Part shown: positions 2,810 through 21,256 of the stretch, one piece after another | Layout: every line of letters begins with the position of its first letter | How positions within the stretch are numbered: the first letter of the stretch is position 1 | From: Candidatus Omnitrophota bacterium | GTDB lineage: Bacteria > Omnitrophota > Gorgyraeia > Zapsychrales > Fredricksoniimonadaceae | DNA length: 64,000 bases | Direction of reading: 5' to 3' | NCBI GenBank assembly: GCA_028870995.1 | Contig: JAGWOI010000004.1 | Span: 17,578-81,577, forward strand | Notes under the pieces: generated by a model | What the model saw: the letters and a program-made list of their open reading frames with translations, nothing else | Databases searched by the model: none | What the model was told of the DNA's origin: nothing | Position numbers and translations under genes: made by a program

Positions 2810-2917
2810 AATCTTCCTCAAATTTTACCCGCACTTAACCTGATCTTAACTTCCGTCGAGTATACTTTGGTTATCCCCAGAAAGATTTAGGAATGTAACT
2901 TATTTAACCGGTGATAG

Positions 2918-5900
2918 TTGCTTATTATGCGTCGGCGCCTAATTATTTTATTTCTTATCCTTACCTTTTCCGTTGAAACTTTAGGCGGGGATGCGGCCCG
3001 GGCCTGGTCGCAGTCTCAAGCTGAAAATGCCGTTATGCTTCCGCCGGGGACCTTGATGTCCATTTCTCCGGTTTTTTCTTTGCCCACCTTAAGAGGCATT
3101 GCCATTGACCCCCACGATCCTTTTAAAATCAATTTTGTCGTTGATAAGGCTGACCAGAATGACCAAATTCAAGGCCAGGTCAATTTGCTGGTGAAGTATT
3201 TTTTAAGCTTTTTGACCATCCCGGAAGAAGATCTTTGGGTCAATCTTTCCCCTTATGAAAAAGGCCGCATCATCACTCCGGATTTCGAGAACACCAATGC
3301 CGGCCGTGACATGTTGGTTGAGGATTACACGCTTAAACAGCTGGCATCCTCGTTGACCTACCCAGGCTCTGATTTGGGAAAAATTTTCTGGCAGAAAATC
3401 TTTCGACGTGCCAGGCAAGAGTATGGTTCCACCGCCATCCCGCTCAATACGTTTAATAAGGTTTGGGTTGTTCCTGACCGGGCCGTGGTGTATGAAGGCA
3501 ACGGCTCGGCCTTCATTGCCGAAAGTCATTTAAAGGTTTTGGTGGAAGAGGATTATTTAAGCATGCGCAAGCATGGCCAAATTGTGCCTAAGAATGACGG
3601 GACTGAAAATTTATCGTCCCAAATAATGCGTGAGCTTATCGTTCCTGAACTGGAACGTGAGGTCAATGAAGGGAAATCTTTTGCGCCTTTACGCCAGATG
3701 TTCAATTCCTTGATTCTTGCCATTTGGTTCAAGAAAAGATTAAGGGAAAACTTGATCGATAAAGTCTATGTAGACCAGGACAAAACTTTGGGCATCGCCC
3801 TGAATGAAAAGCAGGTCAAGGAAAGGATCTATGCCCAATATCTTAAAGCCTTCAAGAAAGGTGTCTATAATTTTATCCAGGAGGATTACGATGCCGCTTC
3901 GCACCAGGACGTACCCCGCAAATATTTTTCCGGCGGTTTCTCCTTTACCAATGCCGCTTCATGCATCAGCTACAGGCCGGCTTCCCAGATAGAGGAGTTG
4001 CCGGAAAACCAACGGCGGTTTAAAGGCGATTTTTCCATGTTCTCCATCGTTTTAAATCCGCTGGGCGTCTCCAAGGCAGCTTTGCTTAAGGCCGATGCCG
4101 CCCAGACCTCGTCTTCGGGAAGGATCAACAAGCTTTTGTATTCCTTTGTTTTTGCCGTTGGCGTGGCGGCGGGCGGATGGATGATGATGCCCGTTTCCCC
4201 GACCGCACCGCCTGCTGTCCCAAGTGTGGCTGCACCGGCGGCGACCAACACAGCTTTGCCTGCGGCAGCAGTTCCTATTCAAGTGACTACTGCCGACAAG
4301 GACGGTCAGATCGAATTTCATAATTTTTCGGACGATGTCGTTCCCATACCAGTGGAGGACCAGCTACTGGCTGAGGACGGCGGGGTGATAAGCGGCCTGG
4401 ACCCGGACAAGAAGGATTATAAGGCCGGGGACGTCATGTTTTCCCTTATAGATCCCCAAGTCAAGGGCCGTATTGAGCAATTGACCAAGGAGCTGGCCAT
4501 CCGCCAAGAAAAGCTTCAGGCTTTACAAAAATTGTTTCCCCAGCAGGCTTCCGGTGAGGAGGTAACGGCCGCGGGCCAGGCGGTGGATGAGATTTCGGCT
4601 GAACTGGCCCATGCCAGGCAGGCCTTGATCACCCGTGTCGCTGTCGCCCCGCATGACCTGAGGGTCAAGAATATGCTGGTGGCTAATGACATGTCCGTGG
4701 CCAAGGGAGGCGAGCTTTTGACTTATTTCGACAAGCAAAGGATCCAGGTGAACATCCAGGTCCCGCCTTCGTTGAACTATTTTTATGCGATCAAAGGGCT
4801 TAAAATAAACGGCCGGCCGGTTGAGAGCATGGTCAGTCTTGACTGGTCCCTGGACCCTTTGCAGAAAAACGCTCAACTCAGTATGATCATGGATGTGCCT
4901 TCCTCAATAGTCACCGGTCAGCCGGCCAAGCTGGAGTTTACTTTTTCAGCACCCGACACAGATCATCAACTCCTGGAGACGGTCAGCGGGCTCGACCAGA
5001 CGTTGGCCAAAGTCAACCGGGTGGAGGCCTATGTTTTAAGGGCGCCTACCGACGGCCCTGTGCAATTCCTGGTCCATGAAGGCCAGCAGGTGGCCAAAGG
5101 CCAGATAGTTGCTGTGGTGGAGAACAAGAACTATATTGAGGAATACCAGAACACCCGCTTGGGTCTCCGCAGCCTTGACATCCAGATAGGTTTGGGCAGG
5201 GACATCGACGGTACGCTGTTGATCAAGCGCGATGAACTGGATCGTTTGAAGGAGCAGAGGGCGGTCTTTTTGGAAAAGCTCAAGACCCTCGAGCAGGAAA
5301 TCCAACTCGATTATGTGCGCGCTCCAAACAGCGGCATTGTCATCAGCAGGGCTGCTTATCAATCGAAGGTATTTAAAGGTCAGGATGAGCTTTTGAGGAT
5401 AGGTACCGGTGAGACGATCGTTGGGAACATCAACGGTCCCAGGGATTTGATTTTGTTCCCCAAGGATTTGGATATTAAGGTCGGGGATCCGGTGGTGGTT
5501 GAAACCCCGCAAGGTGTCAGGCTGCCGGGCAAGGTGACAGCGGTCAATAAAAGTCCTTTTGATGCAGCCCGGGATTTAAGCGCCAATCAGGCCGTCGAGG
5601 TCATGGCCTTTGACCGGCAGAATATCCTGCAACCCAACCTGCCCGTAAATATCATTCTTCCCCAGCAAGGACAAAGGCAGCAAGTGCTGGTGGCATGGGA
5701 CACCGTGGCCCATGAAAACACCGCGGCTGTCCCGACACCGCCGGTCGTTGTCAGTCCCCTTGGGGCGCCCACTGTCGTTCTCCCAGCCCCTGCGGCCGCA
5801 ACACTGACTTCGACACCGGACTTTACCAATGGAGTGCCCCTGTTGGATCTGGCCGGCATTGACCGCCTGGTGGCAGGCAATGAGCTGGTCAGCGGCGCGC

Positions 5901-8900
5901 AGTCCCTTGAAGTCCTTCAGAAAAAGGAAGCGGAGGCGTTCCCTTCTGCCAGCCGGTTCAGCCTGACCGGCGGGGTCTTTATGCAAAACGGCAAACTGGT
6001 GGTCAGCGGCGGCGTCCAGGGCATGCTCAAAAACAGCATCAACGGCGGGCTCTCGTCCGGCAATGCCATCGGTTCCGCTGTCCCCCTGGTCTTTGACCTG
6101 GCCGGCAATATCATTGACGCCATCAGCGGCAAGGTGGTCAAGGAGACTGCTCTGGCCAAGAAAATGACGGAGATTGCCTACCACCATATGCAGGAAACCA
6201 TTATTCAGCAGTCCGTGGCAGGCCAGGATTTGTTGATTGATATCGGGGCGGCACGGCAGAAAATAGGGGAGCTTAAAAAATTACAACAGGATATGCGGCA
6301 GGCCAGGAGTGTCATGAAGGCACGCGAAGAAGCAGGCTTCAGTTTGAAAATCCAGCAGGACCAGCTCGATTACGAAATTCAAGATATCACCAACCAGATC
6401 GAGACCCTGGAAACACAACAGGCCGAATGGAAAACCCAGCTGGACGTTTTGATCAGCCGTACCAGGACCGTCCATTTTGACATGGACATTTCTCCGGTCT
6501 TGCCGTGGGGCAAGGGCTTTACGCCCATCGATGCGGCGACCAAGGAGGCCATGGCCAAGCAGCTTCTTGGTCCCGGCAGCCCGAACCCGCGCATGCAAGA
6601 GGTGACGGCAGCGGACCAGGCGGTGGATATGAGCATCAAGCTGCAGAATTTGGGAAGGCTGCCTTTTATTAATCTAGGCGGCGTTTTTATCAATAACGGC
6701 CATGGGCTTAACCCCTTGTATGATGTTTCGGAACCAGTTACGGGCGAACGCACCGGCAATCTGCAGCAGGGGGCCAATCCGGCGGGGCAGATTGAAATTC
6801 CTCTCATTGACACCGTTCAGCATACCAAGGAAGCTATTGTGGCCCTGGAAAAGCAAAAATCGCAATTGAATATCGATACGGCCAAAGCCGAGTTGGGCCG
6901 CCAGCTTGAGCAGGCCGTGGATGATATCAACCGATTAAGCGCCCAAATCCAACAAACCCAGGAGGCCTATCGGAATGCGGTGGCTGTCTGGGAGGCGAAG
7001 ATCCGGCGTCCTGATTTTTACCTGCCGTATCAGCTGGTGTCTGACCGTCTTGAAATTAATAAACTATGGCAGGAGTTGTGTAACCAAAAAGCGCAATATT
7101 TGAAGGCTGAAACTTCATTAAGGGAGTTGCGCGTCTGGGGCCAGGAAACTTCAAAGGTGCAAGCCGGCCCGATGGATGGACTTCCGGCAGCGGTTTCCGC
7201 CGCCGTGGCGGGAGATTTCAGTGTTGAGGCGCCTTCCTTAATAATACCGTCCTTGCCGTCGCTCAATTTAATGGCCTTCAGTCAGGGAGAGGATACGCTG
7301 GCCCCGGGCATCATCAATTATCACATAGGAGAGGATGTTTCGAGTGCCTGGGCGCTGATGCACGGCAATCCCTCGGGCGCTGATACGCCCCTGGATGCCT
7401 TGAAAAATATTTTGATCAAAGAGCCTAACACTTTTGTGCGTGCCGATGCTTTGAAGCATTTCCTGGCTGAGTATCAAGGGGACAGCCGGTTTTTGCCGGC
7501 GCTTAAAGACATAGTCGAGCGTTCAGCCCATCCGGACGTGGTCTGGGAATTGTTGAAATACATGAGCCAGCGCGAGGACCGCGATCCGCGTTTTCTCGTT
7601 GAGGTCATCGATGAAGGCGAGAACAGCCGCGATCATCTGCTTGTCCGCCTGGGCTTTCAGGCGCTCCGGGATGTTTTGACCATGTACCCGCAGGAGATGA
7701 AAAAATTGAGTCCTGCCGATTTTATAACTTCCGCTCATTCGCCGTATCCTCGGGCGACCATCACCGCGGCCAACAAGGTTTTTCTCACCTTCCTGGCCCA
7801 GGAGCCGGACGATTCCATCGCTGCCGAGCGCCTGGTGCAGAGCGATTTTTGGAGCACGGATGATTTAAAGGACATTTACAAAAAGTTGGAGACGGCCAAG
7901 GACGATCATCCCGGCAGTGCACCTCAAATCGAGGCCCTGGCCCAATTCATCCAGGCCGCTGATAAACGGAAGGCCGCGCTCGACAATATTGACCAGGTCT
8001 TTACCCCCGGGCCCTTTGGCGAGCACGGCGGTGCTGTCTTTCAACGGGACATTATTTCCTATATCCAGATCATGGACAATGCCAGGGAGAGCCAGCGCTT
8101 TCTGAACACCTCGCCGCAATGGGAGAAGATGGCAGCCTTCATCCATCCCAAGCTTTATGCCTGCACCTTAAGCGAAGTCCAACGCCCCGGCCCTGCCGCC
8201 GCTGCTGTCCCTGTGGACCCTGTTTATGATCTGATGCCTTCAACCGCACAGCACCCCGAGCTGGAATATTTTCAAAGTCTGGGGCTTAAGGAACAGGAAG
8301 GATATATTGAACAGTCCCAGGACATTTGCGAATTGAACAGGATCTTGGATCTGAATACGCCCCTGCGCACTGTTGTTTTGGACCGGTTAATGGCATCCAG
8401 CCAGGGGCGGGTGCTGGTGTTAAAAACCTACCTTGGGTCGGATGCCCCTGATCTTTTGGGCCTCATCGAATCACGTTCCTGGGACACGGTTCTGCTGGCC
8501 GACATCCCCAACATTGAGGATGCGGCTTCCAATAGAATCGTGCGTTCGGGGCTGGAGAAAATGTATGACCGTACCGGCCAGGAGAAGTATTTAAATCTAA
8601 GGCTGCTGACGTACTCCGATTTTGAATTGCCTGCCCTCGATGATCCGAGAGGCAAGCGTATCCGAGAGGCTGCCATCCGGCGTGCCGCCGCGATCCGGGC
8701 CCTTCAGGCGTATCAAAAGCATATGGAGGTGGAAGTCCTGCCTTGGGCCGGCTATTCCATCCAGGATGCCAGAACTAAGACCGAGATAGCCAACCTGCAG
8801 CGCATCTTTGTCGAAGAGCCCGACCCCGTCAAGGTGGATGAATATATCGACAGCCACACTGTCCTCTCCCGGCAAGTGCCGCGTAGGATTTTTGATCAGA

Positions 8901-11665
8901 TCAACATTTTCGACGGATCCGTCCACTCCATGTTCGATTATATCAGGGGGGCCAGGGCAAAATTCGTCAAGCGATTGGCGGCCAATGACCAAAGCATCCC
9001 GCGGCTTAATATCCCGCAGATGGCCTCCTTTCTTGGATTGAGCGCCTTTCTCTTCCTGACTTCTCTATATAAAAGGACCTACCGATTTTACCGCCGCAAC
9101 ATCCTGCATTCTGATGACCAGATCAAGGGGCTTATGTACGCCTTAAAAGGAGACAAGCTGGATAAAAATCTGGCCGTCAAATGGCTTAAGGCCCACCAGG
9201 AGAATCGCCTTGACCGCAAGGGGCAGATCATCGGGCAAGACCAAGGGGGGCAGGCTGCGGACGATTTCAAAACACTTTCCGTGAACCCGCCGGTCCAGGT
9301 TTACCTGCCTTCACGTGAAGCTTTCCAGACCTGGTATGTGCTTGTCAGTGATTGGAAGACGGCCCCCAAGGTTCCGCCGGAACGCCTCATGGCCGACCTT
9401 AACACCATTCTTAATAATGCCAAAGAGGTCTTGCGTAAAATGCCGTATGAGCCGGATTTGATGTACAGCGGTCACGCCTGGGAATCTTTGGACACGGACA
9501 CCTATCAAAAGACCTACTCTTATTTTATGGGCCTGGCCTTGGAAACTCTTAACGTGATGAACGTGCGGCTTAGCGGCCAAAAGATAGGAGAAAGTCAGAG
9601 GAGATGGATGCAAGCGGAAGCCGGCATCATGAACGATATGGTCAAGTATGTCAACAGGTACCTGCGGGTTTTAACCTACAGAGGAAACATCGAACGGGCC
9701 ATCAGCAAAAAATTCTCCTATCAGCACTGGACTGAGCGGAGCAAGTTGGCACCGCTGGTCCGATGGATTTTGACGGACAGCTACCTCTGGGGCCAATCGC
9801 AAAAGCGGCTTTTTAAAGAACTGCCCCTTTTATTGGATGAGGGCAACGCCTTGATGCCGGATTTTTACCAGGATAAAGACAGCATCATTGAAGATACGCG
9901 GATTGCCTTAAATACGGCGACCAAAAGGGGCGGCAGCCTGAATAACACCCAGGCCAGGGAAGACCGCCATAATTTCAGGCTGGGGGATTTTTGGGGCCGG
10001 GTGGTTTATTTGTCAGCGTTCGGGCTGGGGTTCGCCGGACTGGCGGGCATATTCATTGGGTACAATATGCCTTTTGTCGAATTATCGACGATTGCCTTTT
10101 TTGTGGTCTGGGTCAAAGTTTATCTCAGTTATTGGAGGCCGCATTTGGATTTGTTGAGGATGGAGTGGAACAAGCTGGCCCACAAGATACGGGGCGATTT
10201 AAAGGCCCAATTGGATCAAAAACTCGGGGATTTCACGGAAGGCCCCCGAAAGAAACAGGTGGTCTTTTTTGCGCGCAAGGAAAACCAGGAGCAAACCGCC
10301 GTCGAATTGGACACCAGCCATGCCCCTAATGTGGACATGATCGTGGTGGTGGTGTCCAACGCTAAAAGCACCGCGAACATCGAGAACTATGTCAAGGGCC
10401 TAAGGGGTCAATTGATCCGCAATGACATTCCGGTCATGGTCATTCCTTCGCGCTACCAGGGCAGCGGCAATGCCTATTTGAGCATGTTGTTGCGGGCCAG
10501 AGACAAGTTCCGGTCGCCGGCTTATAAGAATAAAAACAGATATCCTTATTTGAAGTCCTGGGACAAGTCCCGCAAACTGTTCATCTTCATCGGCAAAGAG
10601 ATCGACGGCATGGACGTCGAATATCCTTTGCTGGACTTGTCCCTCCAAACCGGCTACCGCCTGGCCCAAAAGGACCCGGATATGAACGGCAATGCCGTGG
10701 AAGGCGGGCATATCACCATTTATGCCAGGGACGCTTATTACGGCCCGACGCCGTATTTCCCCCAGCAGGGCATTACCTTTCTCACCGCCAGGGCCAACCG
10801 CGATGAATTAAAAGAACGGGGCTTCGTCAATACCAATGACAGGCACGACACTCTGTCCCCGGTTTCCGAAATCCTGGAGAAACTGGATATTGCCGCCCTG
10901 GAGAATGATAAGAGAAGCCGCAAGGGAAGGACCCTGGAATATTTGGAGGAGAAATTTAACCTGCAAAACCATGCCATCAAACAGTTCGATACTTTAAGCG
11001 GGATCGTGGATGTGGCGCCGGACGCAGAAGAATATTTGTTGAAAATTGCCGCTTATGTGGATGAGCACCAGTTGTGGAAGCAATGGAACAGGCATTTGGT
11101 AGGAGACCTTTTTGTCCCCACCTTGATGTGGATGAGCAATTTGGATGAGGAAGACAAGGAAGAAGAGGTGGAGCAGTACATTGACAAACGCAGCCGCTGG
11201 AGCGATGTCAACCCTAACGGCAATGGCCATAAGCAGGGTCATAGTCATAAGAACGGCAACGGTCATCATGAGATACAGGAGAAGCTGAGGCCGTTTTATA
11301 GCTTCATTAAAGGATTACATCCCCAGATAGAGGCCAGGGCTTTTTTACCTTATCCTCTCCTTACCGTGTCCATGCACATCGCGGGAAAGAAGTTCCAAGA
11401 GGAGATGGACCGGTTTAAGTCCATCGATCATGCGCAAATATCCCAGGCGCCGGTCCTTTCGGAGACGAGGATTGACTCCCGTCCCGGCGGTATCGATCTT
11501 TCCCAGACATCGGATAAAATTTTATTTCAAAAAAGCGATGCGGCCCGGGCAGGCGGTTCCTTTCTTGTTTCGCAGGTCCTTAAGTCCTTTAAGGGTTTTG
11601 ATTTCCAAGTCATTGAATACCGTCAGATTTCGAATCCGTTGAGTTCCCTGGAAGGCGGCCTTTAA
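2918..11665 (+). CDS. Giant (2915 aa) multidomain envelope protein. Regions in order: signal peptide, unknown N-domain, Pro/Ala linkers, HlyD/membrane-fusion-protein-like beta/coiled-coil module, long coiled coils, HEAT-like repeats, TM segments, C-terminal unknown domain, His/Asn/Gly-rich tail
   Basis: Single uninterrupted ORF of 8.7 kb. Start may be TTG at 2918 or ATG at 2927. N-terminal hydrophobic leader. MFP-like motifs: VRAPNSGIVISRAAY…, LRAPTDGPVQFLVHEGQQVAKGQIVAVVEN, VGDPVVVETPQGVRLPGKVTAVN. PA-rich linkers: TAPPAVPSVAAPAA; AVPTPPVVVSPLGAPTVVLPAPAA. Predicted TM helices near aa ~2380–2420. HEAT-like repeats around aa 1450–1700. Tail contains NGNGHKQGHSHKNGNGHHE. Confidence 0.7.
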   Translation: MLIMRRRLIILFLILTFSVETLGGDAARAWSQSQAENAVMLPPGTLMSISPVFSLPTLRGIAIDPHDPFKINFVVDKADQNDQIQGQVNLLVKYFLSFLTIPEEDLWVNLSPYEKGRIITPDFENTNAGRDMLVEDYTLKQLASSLTYPGSDLGKIFWQKIFRRARQEYGSTAIPLNTFNKVWVVPDRAVVYEGNGSAFIAESHLKVLVEEDYLSMRKHGQIVPKNDGTENLSSQIMRELIVPELEREVNEGKSFAPLRQMFNSLILAIWFKKRLRENLIDKVYVDQDKTLGIALNEKQVKERIYAQYLKAFKKGVYNFIQEDYDAASHQDVPRKYFSGGFSFTNAASCISYRPASQIEELPENQRRFKGDFSMFSIVLNPLGVSKAALLKADAAQTSSSGRINKLLYSFVFAVGVAAGGWMMMPVSPTAPPAVPSVAAPAATNTALPAAAVPIQVTTADKDGQIEFHNFSDDVVPIPVEDQLLAEDGGVISGLDPDKKDYKAGDVMFSLIDPQVKGRIEQLTKELAIRQEKLQALQKLFPQQASGEEVTAAGQAVDEISAELAHARQALITRVAVAPHDLRVKNMLVANDMSVAKGGELLTYFDKQRIQVNIQVPPSLNYFYAIKGLKINGRPVESMVSLDWSLDPLQKNAQLSMIMDVPSSIVTGQPAKLEFTFSAPDTDHQLLETVSGLDQTLAKVNRVEAYVLRAPTDGPVQFLVHEGQQVAKGQIVAVVENKNYIEEYQNTRLGLRSLDIQIGLGRDIDGTLLIKRDELDRLKEQRAVFLEKLKTLEQEIQLDYVRAPNSGIVISRAAYQSKVFKGQDELLRIGTGETIVGNINGPRDLILFPKDLDIKVGDPVVVETPQGVRLPGKVTAVNKSPFDAARDLSANQAVEVMAFDRQNILQPNLPVNIILPQQGQRQQVLVAWDTVAHENTAAVPTPPVVVSPLGAPTVVLPAPAAATLTSTPDFTNGVPLLDLAGIDRLVAGNELVSGAQSLEVLQKKEAEAFPSASRFSLTGGVFMQNGKLVVSGGVQGMLKNSINGGLSSGNAIGSAVPLVFDLAGNIIDAISGKVVKETALAKKMTEIAYHHMQETIIQQSVAGQDLLIDIGAARQKIGELKKLQQDMRQARSVMKAREEAGFSLKIQQDQLDYEIQDITNQIETLETQQAEWKTQLDVLISRTRTVHFDMDISPVLPWGKGFTPIDAATKEAMAKQLLGPGSPNPRMQEVTAADQAVDMSIKLQNLGRLPFINLGGVFINNGHGLNPLYDVSEPVTGERTGNLQQGANPAGQIEIPLIDTVQHTKEAIVALEKQKSQLNIDTAKAELGRQLEQAVDDINRLSAQIQQTQEAYRNAVAVWEAKIRRPDFYLPYQLVSDRLEINKLWQELCNQKAQYLKAETSLRELRVWGQETSKVQAGPMDGLPAAVSAAVAGDFSVEAPSLIIPSLPSLNLMAFSQGEDTLAPGIINYHIGEDVSSAWALMHGNPSGADTPLDALKNILIKEPNTFVRADALKHFLAEYQGDSRFLPALKDIVERSAHPDVVWELLKYMSQREDRDPRFLVEVIDEGENSRDHLLVRLGFQALRDVLTMYPQEMKKLSPADFITSAHSPYPRATITAANKVFLTFLAQEPDDSIAAERLVQSDFWSTDDLKDIYKKLETAKDDHPGSAPQIEALAQFIQAADKRKAALDNIDQVFTPGPFGEHGGAVFQRDIISYIQIMDNARESQRFLNTSPQWEKMAAFIHPKLYACTLSEVQRPGPAAAAVPVDPVYDLMPSTAQHPELEYFQSLGLKEQEGYIEQSQDICELNRILDLNTPLRTVVLDRLMASSQGRVLVLKTYLGSDAPDLLGLIESRSWDTVLLADIPNIEDAASNRIVRSGLEKMYDRTGQEKYLNLRLLTYSDFELPALDDPRGKRIREAAIRRAAAIRALQAYQKHMEVEVLPWAGYSIQDARTKTEIANLQRIFVEEPDPVKVDEYIDSHTVLSRQVPRRIFDQINIFDGSVHSMFDYIRGARAKFVKRLAANDQSIPRLNIPQMASFLGLSAFLFLTSLYKRTYRFYRRNILHSDDQIKGLMYALKGDKLDKNLAVKWLKAHQENRLDRKGQIIGQDQGGQAADDFKTLSVNPPVQVYLPSREAFQTWYVLVSDWKTAPKVPPERLMADLNTILNNAKEVLRKMPYEPDLMYSGHAWESLDTDTYQKTYSYFMGLALETLNVMNVRLSGQKIGESQRRWMQAEAGIMNDMVKYVNRYLRVLTYRGNIERAISKKFSYQHWTERSKLAPLVRWILTDSYLWGQSQKRLFKELPLLLDEGNALMPDFYQDKDSIIEDTRIALNTATKRGGSLNNTQAREDRHNFRLGDFWGRVVYLSAFGLGFAGLAGIFIGYNMPFVELSTIAFFVVWVKVYLSYWRPHLDLLRMEWNKLAHKIRGDLKAQLDQKLGDFTEGPRKKQVVFFARKENQEQTAVELDTSHAPNVDMIVVVVSNAKSTANIENYVKGLRGQLIRNDIPVMVIPSRYQGSGNAYLSMLLRARDKFRSPAYKNKNRYPYLKSWDKSRKLFIFIGKEIDGMDVEYPLLDLSLQTGYRLAQKDPDMNGNAVEGGHITIYARDAYYGPTPYFPQQGITFLTARANRDELKERGFVNTNDRHDTLSPVSEILEKLDIAALENDKRSRKGRTLEYLEEKFNLQNHAIKQFDTLSGIVDVAPDAEEYLLKIAAYVDEHQLWKQWNRHLVGDLFVPTLMWMSNLDEEDKEEEVEQYIDKRSRWSDVNPNGNGHKQGHSHKNGNGHHEIQEKLRPFYSFIKGLHPQIEARAFLPYPLLTVSMHIAGKKFQEEMDRFKSIDHAQISQAPVLSETRIDSRPGGIDLSQTSDKILFQKSDAARAGGSFLVSQVLKSFKGFDFQVIEYRQISNPLSSLEGGL

Positions 11666-11697
11666 AACTTTACAGCGGCTTTATCTTTTTCTAATAT

Positions 11698-11753
11698 AAA
11701 CAGCGTAGCATGGGGTCATTCGGGAGGATAAAACAATGACCCCAGCGCTGTTT
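11698..11753 (+). terminator. Strong imperfect inverted repeat (17-bp arms with a 5-nt bulge) downstream of the giant gene. Likely transcription terminator.
   Basis: AAACAGCG-TAGCA-TGGGGTCAT … ATGACCCCAGCGCTGTTT, followed by a T-rich tract (ATCTTTATTTT). Confidence 0.5.
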
Positions 11754-11818
11754 ATCTTTATTTTAGAGCTGATTTTTAAACAAAATTTCAATCTAATTGA
11801 GCTCTAACACTTAATTTG

Positions 11819-11853
11819 TCCTTAATATTTCCTTAATATTCAAGCCCTATATT
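11819..11853 (+). promoter_or_regulatory. Pho-box-like element upstream of the porin-pst operon: perfect 11-bp tandem direct repeat TCCTTAATATT x2, followed 7 bp later by a TATATT -10-like hexamer
   Basis: The repeats are read directly from the sequence. PhoB-type activators bind direct repeats with 11-bp periodicity that replace the -35 element. Confidence 0.45.
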
Positions 11854-17565: not shown

Positions 17566-17845
17566 AAGTCCTTAAAATCCTTTACTTTACACGCCTGCTG
17601 GTTGTTGTATCCTTAGAAACCCCTTTCTAAGATTAAAATTTCCTTAATTTTTCTTGACTCCTCCTTTAGGCCATGGCAGAATAACCGCAGTTTTATTCCA
17701 CCCAGATGATTTTAAGCTTGACCGAGAAAGGAGGGATGCTCTAGAACGGTTAAAAATCATCACCATGGGGTCTATTTAGTTATTTTTCTAGGCCAATAGA
17801 CACCTAGATATATTCATATAAACCCAATATTCTTGGGAGATAGCA

Positions 17846-19258
17846 ATGAAAAAATTATTAGTTGCTGCTTTATTCGTGGTATTAGCCTCACCGGCTTTCG
17901 CGGCTATTCAGAACGTGAAGGTCAGCGGCGATATCACCACCTCGTTTGTTCATCGCAATGATTTTACCTTGGGCACGCCGACAGGTGATCTGTATCTCGA
18001 CGGCCTCAAGAAGCAAAACGTGTTCCTGACCCAAACTCAGGTCCGCATTGACGCTGACTTAAGCGACAATGTGTCCGCCACAGTTGCGTTGCTCAATGAG
18101 CGCGCCTGGAACAACGGCAGCGGTCTTGCTACCCCTACAGATCAAAACGTTGAGATCTACCTGGCCAATGTGACCTTGCGTGAGTTCTTATATTCTCCGC
18201 TCACCTTGACCATCGGTCGTCAGATCTTCACCTACGGTAACGGCTTGGTTCTGGGCAACGGCCCGGCCAACCAGACCAACGGCGGTTTGCAGTTCATCGC
18301 CCAGGATCTAGGCTGGTCAACCGCTGAAGATGGTGTCAAGGCCACCTTGGATTATAAGCCTTTGACCATCGACCTGATCTACTTCAAGAATGATCAGAAG
18401 AACCTCACGGGCGTGATCCAAAATGGCGGTGCCTCAAGCGCCAACCAAAGCTCAGAAGTGTTCGGTTATAATGCCAATTACCAGCTGAGCGATCCCTGGA
18501 ATACGGTTATCGAACAGTATGTGTTCAGCCGTGTTGATGAAGCCGGTTACACGACCAACAACAAGAGCGATAAGCTCTATGTTCCCGGCTTACGTGCCAG
18601 CACCAATCCTATCAAAGGGTTGAACATCCAGGGCGAAATTGCCTGGCAATTGGGTGATAAGGTTGTTACAGCTAATGGTGGTCAGCAAGCCGAAGGCCGT
18701 GATGCCATGGCTATTCAAGCCCTGGCCAGCTATTCGCTGCCGGTGATGGTTAAATACAAACCGACGGTGAATGCTTCTTACACCTACTTCTCTGGTGATA
18801 AGATGTCAGCCACCAACGGCATCTCAGGCAACAAGGATGCCAGGCACTACAGCGCCTGGGATGTGTTCATGGGAGATTTTGGTGCCGGCACCATCTACAG
18901 CGCCATCTATCCCTTGACCAACATGAACATCCTTTCCGCCGGTGCTTCAGTCAGCCCGTTGGAAGATGTGACCACCAGCTTCACGTGGAGCAATCTATGG
19001 GCTGCGGACAGCTACTCTACCAACAATCCTCTGCAGATCTATCAGCCGACTGAGGGTACTGAGCTCAACACCCTGACTACCAAGAACAACGGTGCTAGAG
19101 GCTTGGGTAATGAGTATGATGTGAACCTGAACTATAACTACACTGAAGATGTTACCTTTGGTGTGAGTTTAGGCTGGTATGTTCCCGGTTCCGCGTTGGC
19201 CAATACCAACCGCGACACCGCGAGCCAAGCCATCGCAAGTTTGGGCGTGAAATTCTAA
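17846..19258 (+). CDS. Outer-membrane beta-barrel porin (second porin flanking the pst locus)
   Basis: Signal peptide (MKKLLVAALFVVLASPAFA). Alternating amphipathic beta-strand pattern. C-terminal …LGVKF with terminal Phe. Confidence 0.6.
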   Translation: MKKLLVAALFVVLASPAFAAIQNVKVSGDITTSFVHRNDFTLGTPTGDLYLDGLKKQNVFLTQTQVRIDADLSDNVSATVALLNERAWNNGSGLATPTDQNVEIYLANVTLREFLYSPLTLTIGRQIFTYGNGLVLGNGPANQTNGGLQFIAQDLGWSTAEDGVKATLDYKPLTIDLIYFKNDQKNLTGVIQNGGASSANQSSEVFGYNANYQLSDPWNTVIEQYVFSRVDEAGYTTNNKSDKLYVPGLRASTNPIKGLNIQGEIAWQLGDKVVTANGGQQAEGRDAMAIQALASYSLPVMVKYKPTVNASYTYFSGDKMSATNGISGNKDARHYSAWDVFMGDFGAGTIYSAIYPLTNMNILSAGASVSPLEDVTTSFTWSNLWAADSYSTNNPLQIYQPTEGTELNTLTTKNNGARGLGNEYDVNLNYNYTEDVTFGVSLGWYVPGSALANTNRDTASQAIASLGVKF

Positions 19259-19487: not shown

Positions 19488-20066
19488 ATGACCCGTGATG
19501 AGATATATGATCACCTTGCCAAGGTTTATTTAGGCAAGCGCGAAGGTGCATCGCCTAAAAAAAGTAAACCCAAAAAAATCAACCGCTCGCTGTTGGTGAT
19601 CAACGTGGTGATCACCTTGGTCATCGTGATTTCGGCGGTCTACGGGTTTACGGCTTTCCTGACGCGCCGCGGTGATTTGAAGTCGCAGGTTTTTTACGCG
19701 TTGAACAATGAGCCGATCCGCATTGCGTATGACCTTAATGACCCGTATCCGTCGACAAAGACATTTTCGGTCACGCTCCCGACCAAGGATGTGTCCAAAT
19801 ACAGCGCCTTGAACATTTCGCTGCGGGGCTTGGACGGGGCCTATCCGGGGATCGTGAAGGTGGTGGTCACCAACCAGAAGGACGAGCGGGGGACCTATTA
19901 TATCCAGAATGTGGGCTCAACCTGGCAGAAGGCCAGTATCCCCTTTGACAAATTGAATTTGACGGACTGGACGACCGTCACCAAGGTGTCCTTTGTCCTG
20001 GAAGCATGGAATGTGGATTTCCGTCGGGGAACGCTGTTGATCGACGGGGTCAGTTTCTCAAATTAA
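19488..20066 (+). CDS. Single-pass membrane protein with a C-terminal beta-rich extracytoplasmic domain; first gene of an operon with the ParA-like ATPase
   Basis: Basic cytoplasmic N-terminus (…SPKKSKPKKINRS), TM helix (LLVINVVITLVIVISAVYGF), then a ~130-aa domain. Stop codon is 14 nt before the ParA-like start. Confidence 0.5.
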   Translation: MTRDEIYDHLAKVYLGKREGASPKKSKPKKINRSLLVINVVITLVIVISAVYGFTAFLTRRGDLKSQVFYALNNEPIRIAYDLNDPYPSTKTFSVTLPTKDVSKYSALNISLRGLDGAYPGIVKVVVTNQKDERGTYYIQNVGSTWQKASIPFDKLNLTDWTTVTKVSFVLEAWNVDFRRGTLLIDGVSFSN

Positions 20067-20080
20067 GGAGACAGTTGTTT

Positions 20081-21256
20081 ATGAAAATCATTTCCATTGC
20101 CAACCAAAAAGGCGGGTGCGGTAAAACCACGACGGCCATCAACCTGGCCTCGACGCTGTCCTTCAACGGCCAGAAAACGCTTTTGATCGACCTCGATCCC
20201 CAGGCGCACGCGACCCTGGGTCTGAACGTCGAGGACCAGAACAGCCTTTACAACTGCATCTCCAAACTGACCCCGCATAAACTGAAGATCAAGGACATCA
20301 TAAAGCCGGTGGGCAAGAGCTTTGATATCGTGCCTTCCAACGTGTTGGTGGGCACCCTGGAACAGGAACTGGCCGATGAGATCGGCCGGGAACTTAAGCT
20401 GGTGGAGATTATCGATGAAATCAAGGGCCTTTATGACTATATTCTCATCGACTGCCCGCCCTCCCTGGGGTTTCTCACGGTCAACTCCATCCGCGCCAGC
20501 GATGAACTGATCATTCCGGTTGAGACCAGCCGTTTCTCCATGCAGGGGGTCGACCACCTGATGGACATCACCAATTTGATCCGCGAGAGGCTTGGCCATC
20601 CGGTCAAGCCCAAGGTGCTGATCACCATGTTCGACTCCCGCCTGCGGCATTCCTTTACCATGTTAAACAAGATGAAAGAGAAATTCAGCGGCATGCTCTT
20701 CGACACCATCGTGCATGTCAACGTCAAGCTTAAAGAGGCCGCGGTCATGGGCGAGGCGGTCATCCGCTACGACAAATACTGCCGCGGTTCCAAGGACTAT
20801 TTGAGCCTGGCCCGCGAAATCCTCACCGCCGACCGCCAGCCGATCGTGCCGGAAGTCAAGGTGACCAGTATGCCTACCGTGGCGGCGGTCCTGGAAGCCC
20901 TTCAAGAACCCAAGGAGGTCCAGGCGTCGGCGCCTGCCTCATACCAGCCTTCCGAACGCATGCAGGAATTGATCCAAAAGGAAACTCAGGAGCTCTTGAA
21001 GGCCACCACCTTTTCTCTGGCAGCGCCGGAGGCCAAATCGGTGTATGTGACCGGTTCCTTCAATGATTGGTCGCTGGACGAGAACTGCCGGATGGCCGGC
21101 CAGGACGGCCTCTGGACCCTGAAGGTCAGCCTCAAGCCGGGGACCTATAAATATCAGTTCATCGTCGACGGCAAATGGCAGGAGGATCCGGCCAACGCCA
21201 ACATGGAGCGCAATTCCTTCGGCGACATCAATTCCCTGATCGAGGTCAAGGCCTAA
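20081..21256 (+). CDS. ParA/MinD-family P-loop ATPase fused to a C-terminal CBM48 (AMPK-beta glycogen-binding-like) domain
   Basis: AAGGAG ribosome-binding site at 20065–20070 and ATG at 20081. Deviant Walker A KGGCGKTT. The C-terminus (VYVTGSFNDWSLDE…GTYKYQFIVDGKWQEDP) matches the CBM48 consensus (GSFNNW…Y.YKF.VDG.W). Confidence 0.8.
   Translation: MKIISIANQKGGCGKTTTAINLASTLSFNGQKTLLIDLDPQAHATLGLNVEDQNSLYNCISKLTPHKLKIKDIIKPVGKSFDIVPSNVLVGTLEQELADEIGRELKLVEIIDEIKGLYDYILIDCPPSLGFLTVNSIRASDELIIPVETSRFSMQGVDHLMDITNLIRERLGHPVKPKVLITMFDSRLRHSFTMLNKMKEKFSGMLFDTIVHVNVKLKEAAVMGEAVIRYDKYCRGSKDYLSLAREILTADRQPIVPEVKVTSMPTVAAVLEALQEPKEVQASAPASYQPSERMQELIQKETQELLKATTFSLAAPEAKSVYVTGSFNDWSLDENCRMAGQDGLWTLKVSLKPGTYKYQFIVDGKWQEDPANANMERNSFGDINSLIEVKA

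Follow-up and report, generated by a model that had tools for sequence, protein, structure and literature searches.

In tripartite machines such as AcrA/TolC, MacA/TolC and HlyD/TolC, a TolC/OEP-type outer-membrane factor (OMF) is combined with adaptors of the lipoyl/hairpin/barrel type, six adaptors being present per TolC trimer (PMC8277102), and this 3:6 ratio is reached through separate genes. The giant gene described here, which occupies positions 2918 to 11665 of the forward strand in a 64,000-nt stretch of Candidatus Omnitrophota DNA (the window; assembly GCA_028870995.1, contig JAGWOI010000004.1, positions 17,578 to 81,577), places parts of these kinds on one polypeptide. Since its product contains two adaptor units and one channel unit, trimerization would yield the same 6:3 ratio. 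Unlike the tripartite machines, it has no ATP-binding cassette (ABC), resistance-nodulation-division (RND) or major facilitator superfamily (MFS) transporter within or beside it, and it carries additional parts: an N-terminal domain (N-domain), a region of ~575 aa, three transmembrane (TM) helices and a presumably cytoplasmic domain with a nucleotidyltransferase fold. The reading favored here, with a probability of about 0.5, is that the product of the giant gene is one subunit of an envelope-spanning, self-contained machine of the tripartite-pump or type I secretion kind, and that the gene is controlled together with the phosphate (Pho) regulon.

Similar comparisons can be made with two other groups of proteins. 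In TriABC-OpmH, two different adaptor units (TriA and TriB) lie side by side, as in the giant protein, and the family profile matches the corresponding entry in the Protein Data Bank (PDB), 6vej. However, 6vej is an engineered TriA-TriB fusion, whereas the tandem in the giant protein is natural and runs directly into the channel subunit. From the same phylum, long multi-domain proteins with signal peptides and/or TM helices and mixed enzyme cargo, which the giant protein resembles, are described in two studies that cover proteins of at least 10,000 aa (West-Roberts et al. 2023, bioRxiv 10.1101/2023.11.21.568195; Nielsen and Lui 2026, bioRxiv 10.64898/2026.06.07.730766). By term search, the main texts of these studies contain neither TolC, HlyD nor “membrane fusion” (nor, in the 2026 text, efflux), and their passages with “N-terminal” describe no shared N-domain.

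Adaptor and channel modules

The comparison with tripartite machines is carried by three modules, with residue numbers here and below counted from the ATG at 2927:

4319..4996, + strand: membrane-fusion/periplasmic-adaptor unit 1 (aa 465-690), from profile comparison with PDB and hhalign against unit 2
4997..5716, + strand: membrane-fusion/periplasmic-adaptor unit 2 (aa 691-930), from Pfam/NCBIfam and profile comparison with PDB
5822..7156, + strand: TolC/OEP-type OMF module (aa 966-1410), from Pfam OEP (PF02321)

Unit 2 aligns with residues 27-152 of MacA, which span lipoyl, hairpin and lipoyl, and it thereby displays the split-lipoyl/hairpin arrangement. Its profile matches in PDB are MacA (8.4e-8) and MexA (4e-6), together with EmrA and HlyD, while those of unit 1 are 4l8j (E 1e-5), LipC and EmrA; the family profile matches MacA at 1.8e-12. 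The giant protein matches TIGR01730 at E 3e-10 (39.5 bits versus a cut-off of 94.9), and the membrane-fusion protein (MFP) match of its relatives reaches down to E 2.6e-7. HlyD_D23 is found in 11 of 16 relatives, and Biotin_lipoyl matches from Pfam occur in the giant protein and relatives alike. The lipoyl-hairpin-lipoyl cores of the two units align with each other at an hhalign probability of 87.6% (E 3.5e-6). On sequence comparison, the adaptor module is thus a tandem duplication. The first-pass annotation of this DNA had proposed one HlyD/MFP-like module; its adaptor similarity stands, while the module proves to be a tandem pair, of which the motifs then quoted belong to unit 2.

Downstream of the adaptor pair is the likely analog of TolC. 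In two scans, the OEP profile finds a match in 14 of 16 relatives (best E 4e-11) and in 9 of 9, the best E overall being 7.6e-12; the OMF segment of the giant protein, scanned alone, reaches 22.6 bits, the gathering cut-off being 22. The stretch previously taken for long coiled coils following the MFP module is therefore better described as a TolC/OEP module. In the giant protein the match is confined to the second half of the module (aa 1228-1351), and the first half contains, by eye, an LxL...P...SLTGG pattern. Pro/Ala-rich linkers, as had been claimed, are present on either side of the adaptor pair, at aa 423-464 (42 residues) and 931-965 (35 residues).

Adaptor, TolC-type factor and nucleotidyltransferase fold are each modules of known kinds, and the module architecture of the giant protein is well supported. 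A natural fusion of OMF and adaptor, or a link between Omnitrophota and TolC, is the subject of no relevant report in the literature searched. This suggests that neither a natural single-chain 2:1 adaptor-channel fusion, nor its combination, in the absence of a pump, with membrane anchors and a nucleotidyltransferase-like domain presumed to be cytoplasmic, has been described.

The reading frame and its family

The open reading frame (ORF) is uninterrupted from 2918 to 11665 on the + strand, as initially reported for a single 8.7-kb frame. Its first in-frame ATG, at 2927, is the likely start; the resulting product of 2912 aa has exactly the sequence of NCBI MDE2221820.1, which is annotated as “hypothetical protein” and comes from a metagenome-assembled genome (MAG) of Candidatus Omnitrophica/Omnitrophota, on a contig of 110,887 bp. 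The G+C content of the gene (0.46-0.56) is similar to that of neighboring genes. A homology search with the giant protein returned 1436 matches in the database, and 30 full-length relatives (2783-3568 aa) align with it collinearly at 27-47% alignment identity; relative P0001, for example, is 41% identical over at least about 1470 aligned residues and covers 85% of the query. Those family sources that bear a taxon name are Candidatus Omnitrophica or Omnitrophota, and a few members are labelled “TolC family protein”. The family appears to be narrow and rare, because a profile of the C-terminal 900 aa, compared with 1.84 billion cluster representatives, finds just 185 proteins at E<=1e-3 and 79 at E<=1e-30.

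It is extremely improbable that this long ORF is a chimera, a run of several ordinary genes, or an ordinary adhesin or autotransporter. Split orthologues at two related loci, into two ORFs in L006 (2199-10561) and four in L059 (9917-19034), speak for such an explanation. However, pstB and phoU are also split in L059, so the breaks in that assembly read as indel errors, and the breaks at both loci probably have this origin rather than marking pseudogenes. A chimera is rejected by the collinear, uninterrupted ORFs of 2780-3570 aa in ~30 independent assemblies, and the deposited record of identical sequence is a single 2912-aa protein. An adhesin or autotransporter identity was likewise rejected, there being no match to a beta-helix passenger, autotransporter barrel or adhesin-repeat family at E<=1 in Pfam or NCBIfam.

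The membrane-anchored C-terminal region

The remaining modules of the giant protein surround the adaptors and channel on both sides:

2927..3007, + strand: Sec-type signal peptide (aa 1-27), with MRRR, a hydrophobic core and ARA↓W
3008..3967, + strand: Omnitrophota giant-protein N-domain (aa 28-347), with motifs WVNLSP and PRKYFSGG
4133..4192, + strand: internal hydrophobic segment (aa 403-422), with the look of a relic second signal peptide on comparison with relatives
7244..8971, + strand: family-specific region of ~575 aa (aa 1440-2015), presumed periplasmic, conserved in relatives
9011..9070, + strand: TM2 (aa 2029-2048), predicted out-to-in by charge bias, with C-flank KRTYRFYRR
9071..9997, + strand: helical-bundle domain (aa 2049-2357), presumed cytoplasmic, modelled by AlphaFold2 (AF2) mostly at a predicted local distance difference test score (pLDDT) of 80-95
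9998..10132, + strand: TM3-TM4 hairpin (aa 2358-2402), with TM segments 2358-2378 and 2381-2402
10319..11431, + strand: nucleotidyltransferase-fold domain (aa ~2465-2835) by model, nearest to the GDP-fucose pyrophosphorylase part of FKP
11474..11662, + strand: C-terminal bracket, GGIDL (aa 2854-2858) followed by FKGFDFQVIEYRQISNP, from motif recurrence in best hits

Immediately C-terminal to the OMF module is the ~575-aa region, called HEAT-like at first pass, for which there is no HEAT/ARM match in Pfam at E<=1 and no PDB sequence match by family profile. Beyond it, the C-terminal TM helices that had been anticipated are found as three segments (2029-2048, 2358-2378 and 2381-2402). An AF2 model of aa 2015-2912 (pLDDT 75, predicted template modelling score 0.73) shows a helical bundle whose structural matches are just generic helical ones, followed after the TM hairpin by an alpha/beta domain. 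In this model the domain, formerly a ~500-aa unclassifiable part of the chain, has a sugar-1-phosphate nucleotidyltransferase (GDP-fucose pyrophosphorylase-like) fold, and the C-terminal region profile finds no relative in PDB by sequence.

The described counterpart of this domain is FKP/GFPP, an L-fucose-1-phosphate guanylyltransferase (PDB 9iis, 9iit), to which sequence identity is ~11%, with no Pfam match. The catalytic residues of FKP are Ser78/Arg79/Arg80, Lys89, Asp136, Lys187 and His272 (PMC11982464), and the region containing its pyrophosphate-binding Arg79/Arg80/Lys89 has no obvious counterpart in the giant protein, where there is a single conserved Gly-rich loop, GSGNAY, without Arg or Lys. 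The invariant or near-invariant residues of the domain are R2498, D2500, D2727 and R2755. Unlike FKP, it is membrane-tethered and lacks a kinase domain. An NG/H-rich tract at aa 2764-2782 (nt 11216-11272), which had been taken for a His/Asn/Gly-rich tail, instead forms a low-confidence insert within the alpha/beta domain, ~130 aa short of the C-terminus; NG-rich inserts of a similar kind occur elsewhere in the chain of relatives.

The combination of bundle, TM hairpin and nucleotidyltransferase-like module also recurs (E ~1e-11 to 1e-62), at varied positions, in other proteins of 1200-5200 aa (P0146, P0157, P0183, P0189, P0204, P0234 and others), most of them without the N-domain. One of these proteins has a glycogen-debranching GDE_C domain, and several end in ...L.S.A.

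A bracket shared by large Omnitrophota proteins

At the other end of the chain, the N-terminal signal segment recognized at first pass is a Sec-type signal peptide, and an N-terminus of the same kind is present in 107 of the 120 best hits of the homology search, the sample over which all counts in this section are taken. The N-domain that follows (~320 aa) shares ~50% identity with the N-termini of most other best hits, which are large (1600-4160 aa) Omnitrophota proteins; those sharing it include P0037-P0120 and L007-L085. By Pfam, the rest of these proteins is unrelated, comprising triose-phosphate isomerase, malate synthase, M48 peptidase with ABC1 kinase, response regulators, HATPase and others. 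Many N-domain paralogs occur per genome, with at least 7 loci of one MAG among the 80 best. The WVNLSP motif lies in the first 250 aa of 118 best hits, and GG[IVL]D[LFVI] in the last 160 aa of 99, where its median distance from the C-terminus is 68 aa. GG[IVL]D[LF] is followed by a strand-like motif, either GF.F.I..F.P or GF.PVI.NI.P...L..LLG. As judged from motif recurrence, N-domain and C-terminal GGIDL form a bracket around unrelated cargo in large Omnitrophota proteins throughout the phylum.

The N-domain itself has no sequence match in Pfam, NCBIfam or PDB and no fold match, and a term search of the full-text literature found “GGIDL” in no relevant paper, which suggests that the bracket is undescribed in the literature searched. 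One N-domain locus, L034 (DYOU01000064.1, 6353 bp), is labelled Candidatus Elulimicrobium sp. (Patescibacteria group) and either was binned wrongly or is a rare case from beyond Omnitrophota; many other N-domain loci are auto-labelled “uncultured Planctomycetales”.

Between the N-domain and the first adaptor unit lies the internal hydrophobic segment. Its counterparts in relatives P0034, P0006, P0010 and P0031 have a K/R n-region, an h-region and AxA sites, for example GGVAQA↓A (P0034), GLAQA↓Q (P0006) and GLASA↓A (P0010). These features suggest that aa 403-422 are what remains of the signal peptide of a formerly independent protein, to which the present signal peptide and N-domain were added by a later fusion.

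Gene context

Upstream of the giant gene are genes for FKBP, CBS, DUF47/PhoU_div and PHO4 (pit) proteins, and downstream are those for Porin_5, PstS, PstC, PstA, PstB and PhoU. The gene is thereby confirmed in its assigned place between pit/DUF47 and porin-pstSCAB-phoU. Farther downstream are genes for an AlgE-like porin, a ParA-like ATPase with CBM48, PNPase, FtsK, RodZ, MiaB and RibBA. The ATPase (20006-21256) is an unusual pairing in itself, a ParA/MinD-type ATPase fused to a C-terminal glycogen-binding CBM48/AMPK1_CBM domain. No ABC, RND or MFS efflux pump gene is present among the annotated ORFs of the window, and an inner-membrane transporter gene of these classes adjoins the giant gene in 0 of 12 loci, in agreement with the lack of an adjacent pump first claimed; at locus L089, a separate OEP-ACR_tran pair lies ~6 kb from the family member.

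Linkage to pst is real but partial. Porin_5-pstS/C/A/B-phoU is found directly downstream, on the same strand, at four of the 12 loci, namely the window and L006, L059 and L008, whose relatives have best-segment identities of 52%, 34% and 25%, respectively. In other relatives, the gene resides between hflX and hsp20-clpB, between thrS and infC, in three loci between sucCD-parA and cbiA/DRTGG(-nuo), in one locus ahead of an overlapping OmpR-type regulator gene, and in one locus ahead of HTH and ECF-sigma genes. At the locus of P0034 (L089, 3353-20634), it lies between kdpC and kdpD, inside the potassium-uptake operon, in the order kdpFABC-[giant gene]-kdpDE. Regulatory genes also adjoin some relatives: an OmpR/PhoB-type response-regulator gene (L004, 19780-20511) overlaps the 3′ end of the P0005 ortholog, and a PAS-HisKA-HATPase sensor kinase gene (L006, 925-2124) ends ~75 nt upstream of the L006 ortholog. 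Co-localization of homologs with pst therefore holds in part. That with pit does not: an obligatory pit/DUF47 linkage was rejected, the pair being absent (E<=1e-10) in the first related loci, with no PHO4/PhoU_div neighbor annotated in the later ones.

Promoters and terminator

Three elements flank the giant gene:

2834..2866, + strand: Pho-box-like promoter of the giant gene from box search, CTTAAC-N5-CTTAAC (11-bp period), 10 nt, TATACT (2861-2866)
11696..11755, + strand: intrinsic-terminator-like hairpin with U-rich tail (-29.5 kcal/mol, z -5.28)
11810..11853, + strand: promoter of the porin-pstSCAB-phoU operon from box search, three tandem CTTAAT at 11-bp spacing (11810-11837), 10 nt, TATATT

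In PhoB-dependent promoters, a direct-repeat box takes the place of the -35 element. The two promoters of the window display a sequence pattern of this kind, with 11-bp direct repeats at the -35 position and a box-to--10 spacing of 10 nt in both. A Pho-box-like repeat just downstream of the gene had been claimed and is found at 11810; a second copy, upstream of the gene, had been missed. Because the same box occupies the -35 position of both promoters, co-regulation with pst seems likely.

The same box and spacing exist upstream of the orthologs in L006 and L059. In L006 the giant gene is preceded by GTTAATACAATCTTAAT, 10 nt and TATACT, and the porin by CTTAACCGAATCTTAAC; in L059 the giant gene is preceded by CTTAACCATAACTTAAC, and a different, TTCACA-repeat block of ~41 nt (AAATTCACAA.AA.TTCACA...TAAGGATT.TGTCAC) is 85% identical between the two upstream regions by hand count. 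In L008, TCATTTTGACA and TCACATGGA are common to its two upstream regions, which is weaker evidence. A common regulator for both promoters is strongly suggested, because the box differs between genomes and yet stays common to the same two promoters. A third 11-bp-periodic box (ATTAAAATTTC CTTAATTTTTC, 17632-17653) lies in the spacer between phoU and the next gene and precedes ORF 17846-19258, an Alginate_exp (AlgE-like) outer-membrane porin gene that may belong to this regulon too.

With a promoter box of its own and a strong hairpin terminator after it, the giant gene constitutes its own transcription unit, and both the terminator and the monocistronic arrangement proposed at first pass hold up. 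Most likely, an OmpR/PhoB-type regulator activates it along with the phosphate-starvation regulon, in keeping with the OmpR-type regulator or histidine-kinase genes that adjoin some relatives.

Proposed assembly

Sec export would bring the first ~2000 residues, including the N-domain, both adaptor units, the TolC unit and the ~575-aa region, outside the cytoplasm. TM2 would then cross the inner membrane, leaving the helical bundle, the TM hairpin and the nucleotidyltransferase-fold domain inside. By charge bias, both the C-flank of TM2 and the sequence following TM4 would be cytoplasmic, and the positive charges of the aa 403-422 segment are on the wrong side for a stop-transfer helix. Such a topology would be coherent with the expected location of adaptors and TolC and with the nucleoside triphosphate (NTP) need of a nucleotidyltransferase.

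In a homotrimer of this subunit, one TolC-like duct would be surrounded by six adaptor units as a sheath and would stand on a base of nine TM helices, together with three cytoplasmic helical and nucleotidyltransferase-like modules. The Pro/Ala-rich linkers would be long enough, at 42 and 35 residues, for the units to fold back along the periplasm. Cargo might be supplied or gated by the cytoplasmic module; alternatively, the duct might dock on a transporter whose gene lies elsewhere, or the assembly might be a passive or structural bridge. The leading guess is that the cytoplasmic domain binds or makes a nucleotide-sugar or nucleotide, and then feeds or gates export of a phosphate-free envelope glycoconjugate or senses nucleotide status.

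Several observations weigh against a conduit of this kind under Pho control. HlyD_D23 scores 17.8 bits in the giant protein against a cut-off of 30, and it is thus, like TIGR01730, below its curated cut-off. The OEP score given above is at its own cut-off, the family profile of the OMF region has no TolC match in PDB, and the two OMF halves align in register at an hhalign E of 0.052, which is not significant. No energizing transporter domain is present in the giant protein or adjacent to it, and nine TM helices correspond to no pump known to us. The C-terminal 900 aa of 12 relatives have no Pfam match, and the nucleotidyltransferase-like domain may be catalytically dead, since GSGNAY lacks the pyrophosphate-binding Arg of FKP. 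A pst operon adjoining the giant gene is absent at eight of 12 loci. CTTAA-N6-CTTAA occurs three times in the 64-kb window versus 0.07 expected, all within the giant-gene promoter (2834-2849) and the porin-pst promoter, a statistic weakened by the fact that the pattern was defined after viewing both sites. If aa 403-422 were a real TM helix, as could be, the MFP and TolC modules would be cytoplasmic; and under the export topology GGIDL would be cytoplasmic here, yet it would be extracytoplasmic in many superfamily members that have a signal peptide only.

Alternative explanations

The topology has a counterpart in which aa 403-422 form a true stop-transfer helix, so that the MFP and TolC modules and the region after them would be a cytoplasmic coiled-coil scaffold and the domains beyond TM2 would be extracytoplasmic. 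The segment is fairly hydrophobic in the giant protein (Kyte-Doolittle value of 1.72 over 19 residues), and such an orientation would place N-domain and GGIDL on the same outer side, as in the superfamily members that have a signal peptide only. Yet the charge bias is reversed for both this segment and TM2, the segment is too weakly hydrophobic for a TM helix in P0001 (1.02) and P0005 (0.95) and insufficient also in P0002, and in others it has the look of a relic signal peptide with AxA sites. To our knowledge, neither TolC nor MFP folds occur in the cytoplasm, and an extracellular nucleotidyltransferase fold would be without NTP; the reversed orientation is very unlikely. A different view of the bracket would make N-domain and GGIDL the signature of an Omnitrophota-wide sorting or assembly system for giant multi-enzyme proteins, with the TolC-adaptor megaprotein as its conduit or membrane docking station, switched on under nutrient limitation. 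In that case the megaprotein may be the sole member with an envelope-spanning duct as cargo, and the idea is decidedly speculative.

Function can also be read in two other ways. Synthase-dependent exopolysaccharide systems (Alg44/AlgK/AlgE, BcsC, PgaA) and DevBCA-HgdD bring together an MFP-like periplasmic module, a helical scaffold in the periplasm, a channel in the outer membrane and sugar-nucleotide chemistry in the cytoplasm: the periplasmic domain of Alg44 is MFP-like, helical repeats go together with an outer-membrane barrel in AlgK/BcsC/PgaA, and DevBCA-HgdD uses a TolC-type channel to export glycolipid. A narrower form of the favored assembly would be a glycan or glycolipid exporter of the synthase-dependent type, in which the cytoplasmic nucleotidyltransferase makes an activated sugar and a polymer or lipid free of phosphate is led to the surface by the adaptor, helical and TolC modules during phosphate starvation. 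These parallels, the GDP-fucose-pyrophosphorylase-like fold, the fusion of a distant relative of the cytoplasmic module to GDE_C and the Pho-type promoter speak for it. It remains a tentative and rather unlikely proposal, as there is no synthase, glycosyltransferase, flippase or ABC part in the protein or, for glycosyltransferase, synthase and flippase domains, adjoining it at the 12 loci, the catalytic signature of a nucleotidyltransferase is not evident (no Pfam match; GSGNAY loop), and the channel is TolC-type rather than an AlgE/BcsC-type barrel, TolC-type ducts not being known as polysaccharide carriers in synthase-dependent systems. Less likely still is that transport has been lost and that MFP and TolC modules form a rigid periplasm-spanning strut, tethering or spacing inner and outer membrane in very small cells. 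This would explain the lack of pump or ATPase, the strong divergence of the MFP and OEP modules and the variable neighbors of a single gene, and it would accord with many other giant Omnitrophota proteins being membrane-anchored (bioRxiv 10.64898/2026.06.07.730766). On the other hand, all modules are kept over the full length down to ~27% alignment identity, the 2:1 adaptor-to-channel arrangement is that of working ducts, and nutrient-linked regulated promoters and placement in a kdp operon suit a transport role better than a constitutive strut.

Implications

If the proposed assembly is correct, the 6:3 adaptor-to-channel ratio of tripartite pumps would be written in a single gene, without a recognizable pump, and the giant protein would offer a minimal, genetically simple object for learning how adaptors open TolC-type ducts and what else may energize or gate them. 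The bracket superfamily is a more open-ended lead than the megaprotein, and it bears on the final cell location of giant proteins, many of which have cytoplasm-type enzymes behind a signal peptide. An Omnitrophota-specific megaprotein tied to the phosphate-starvation response would, in turn, provide a testable entry to the physiology of an ultra-small, host-dependent and almost uncultured phylum.

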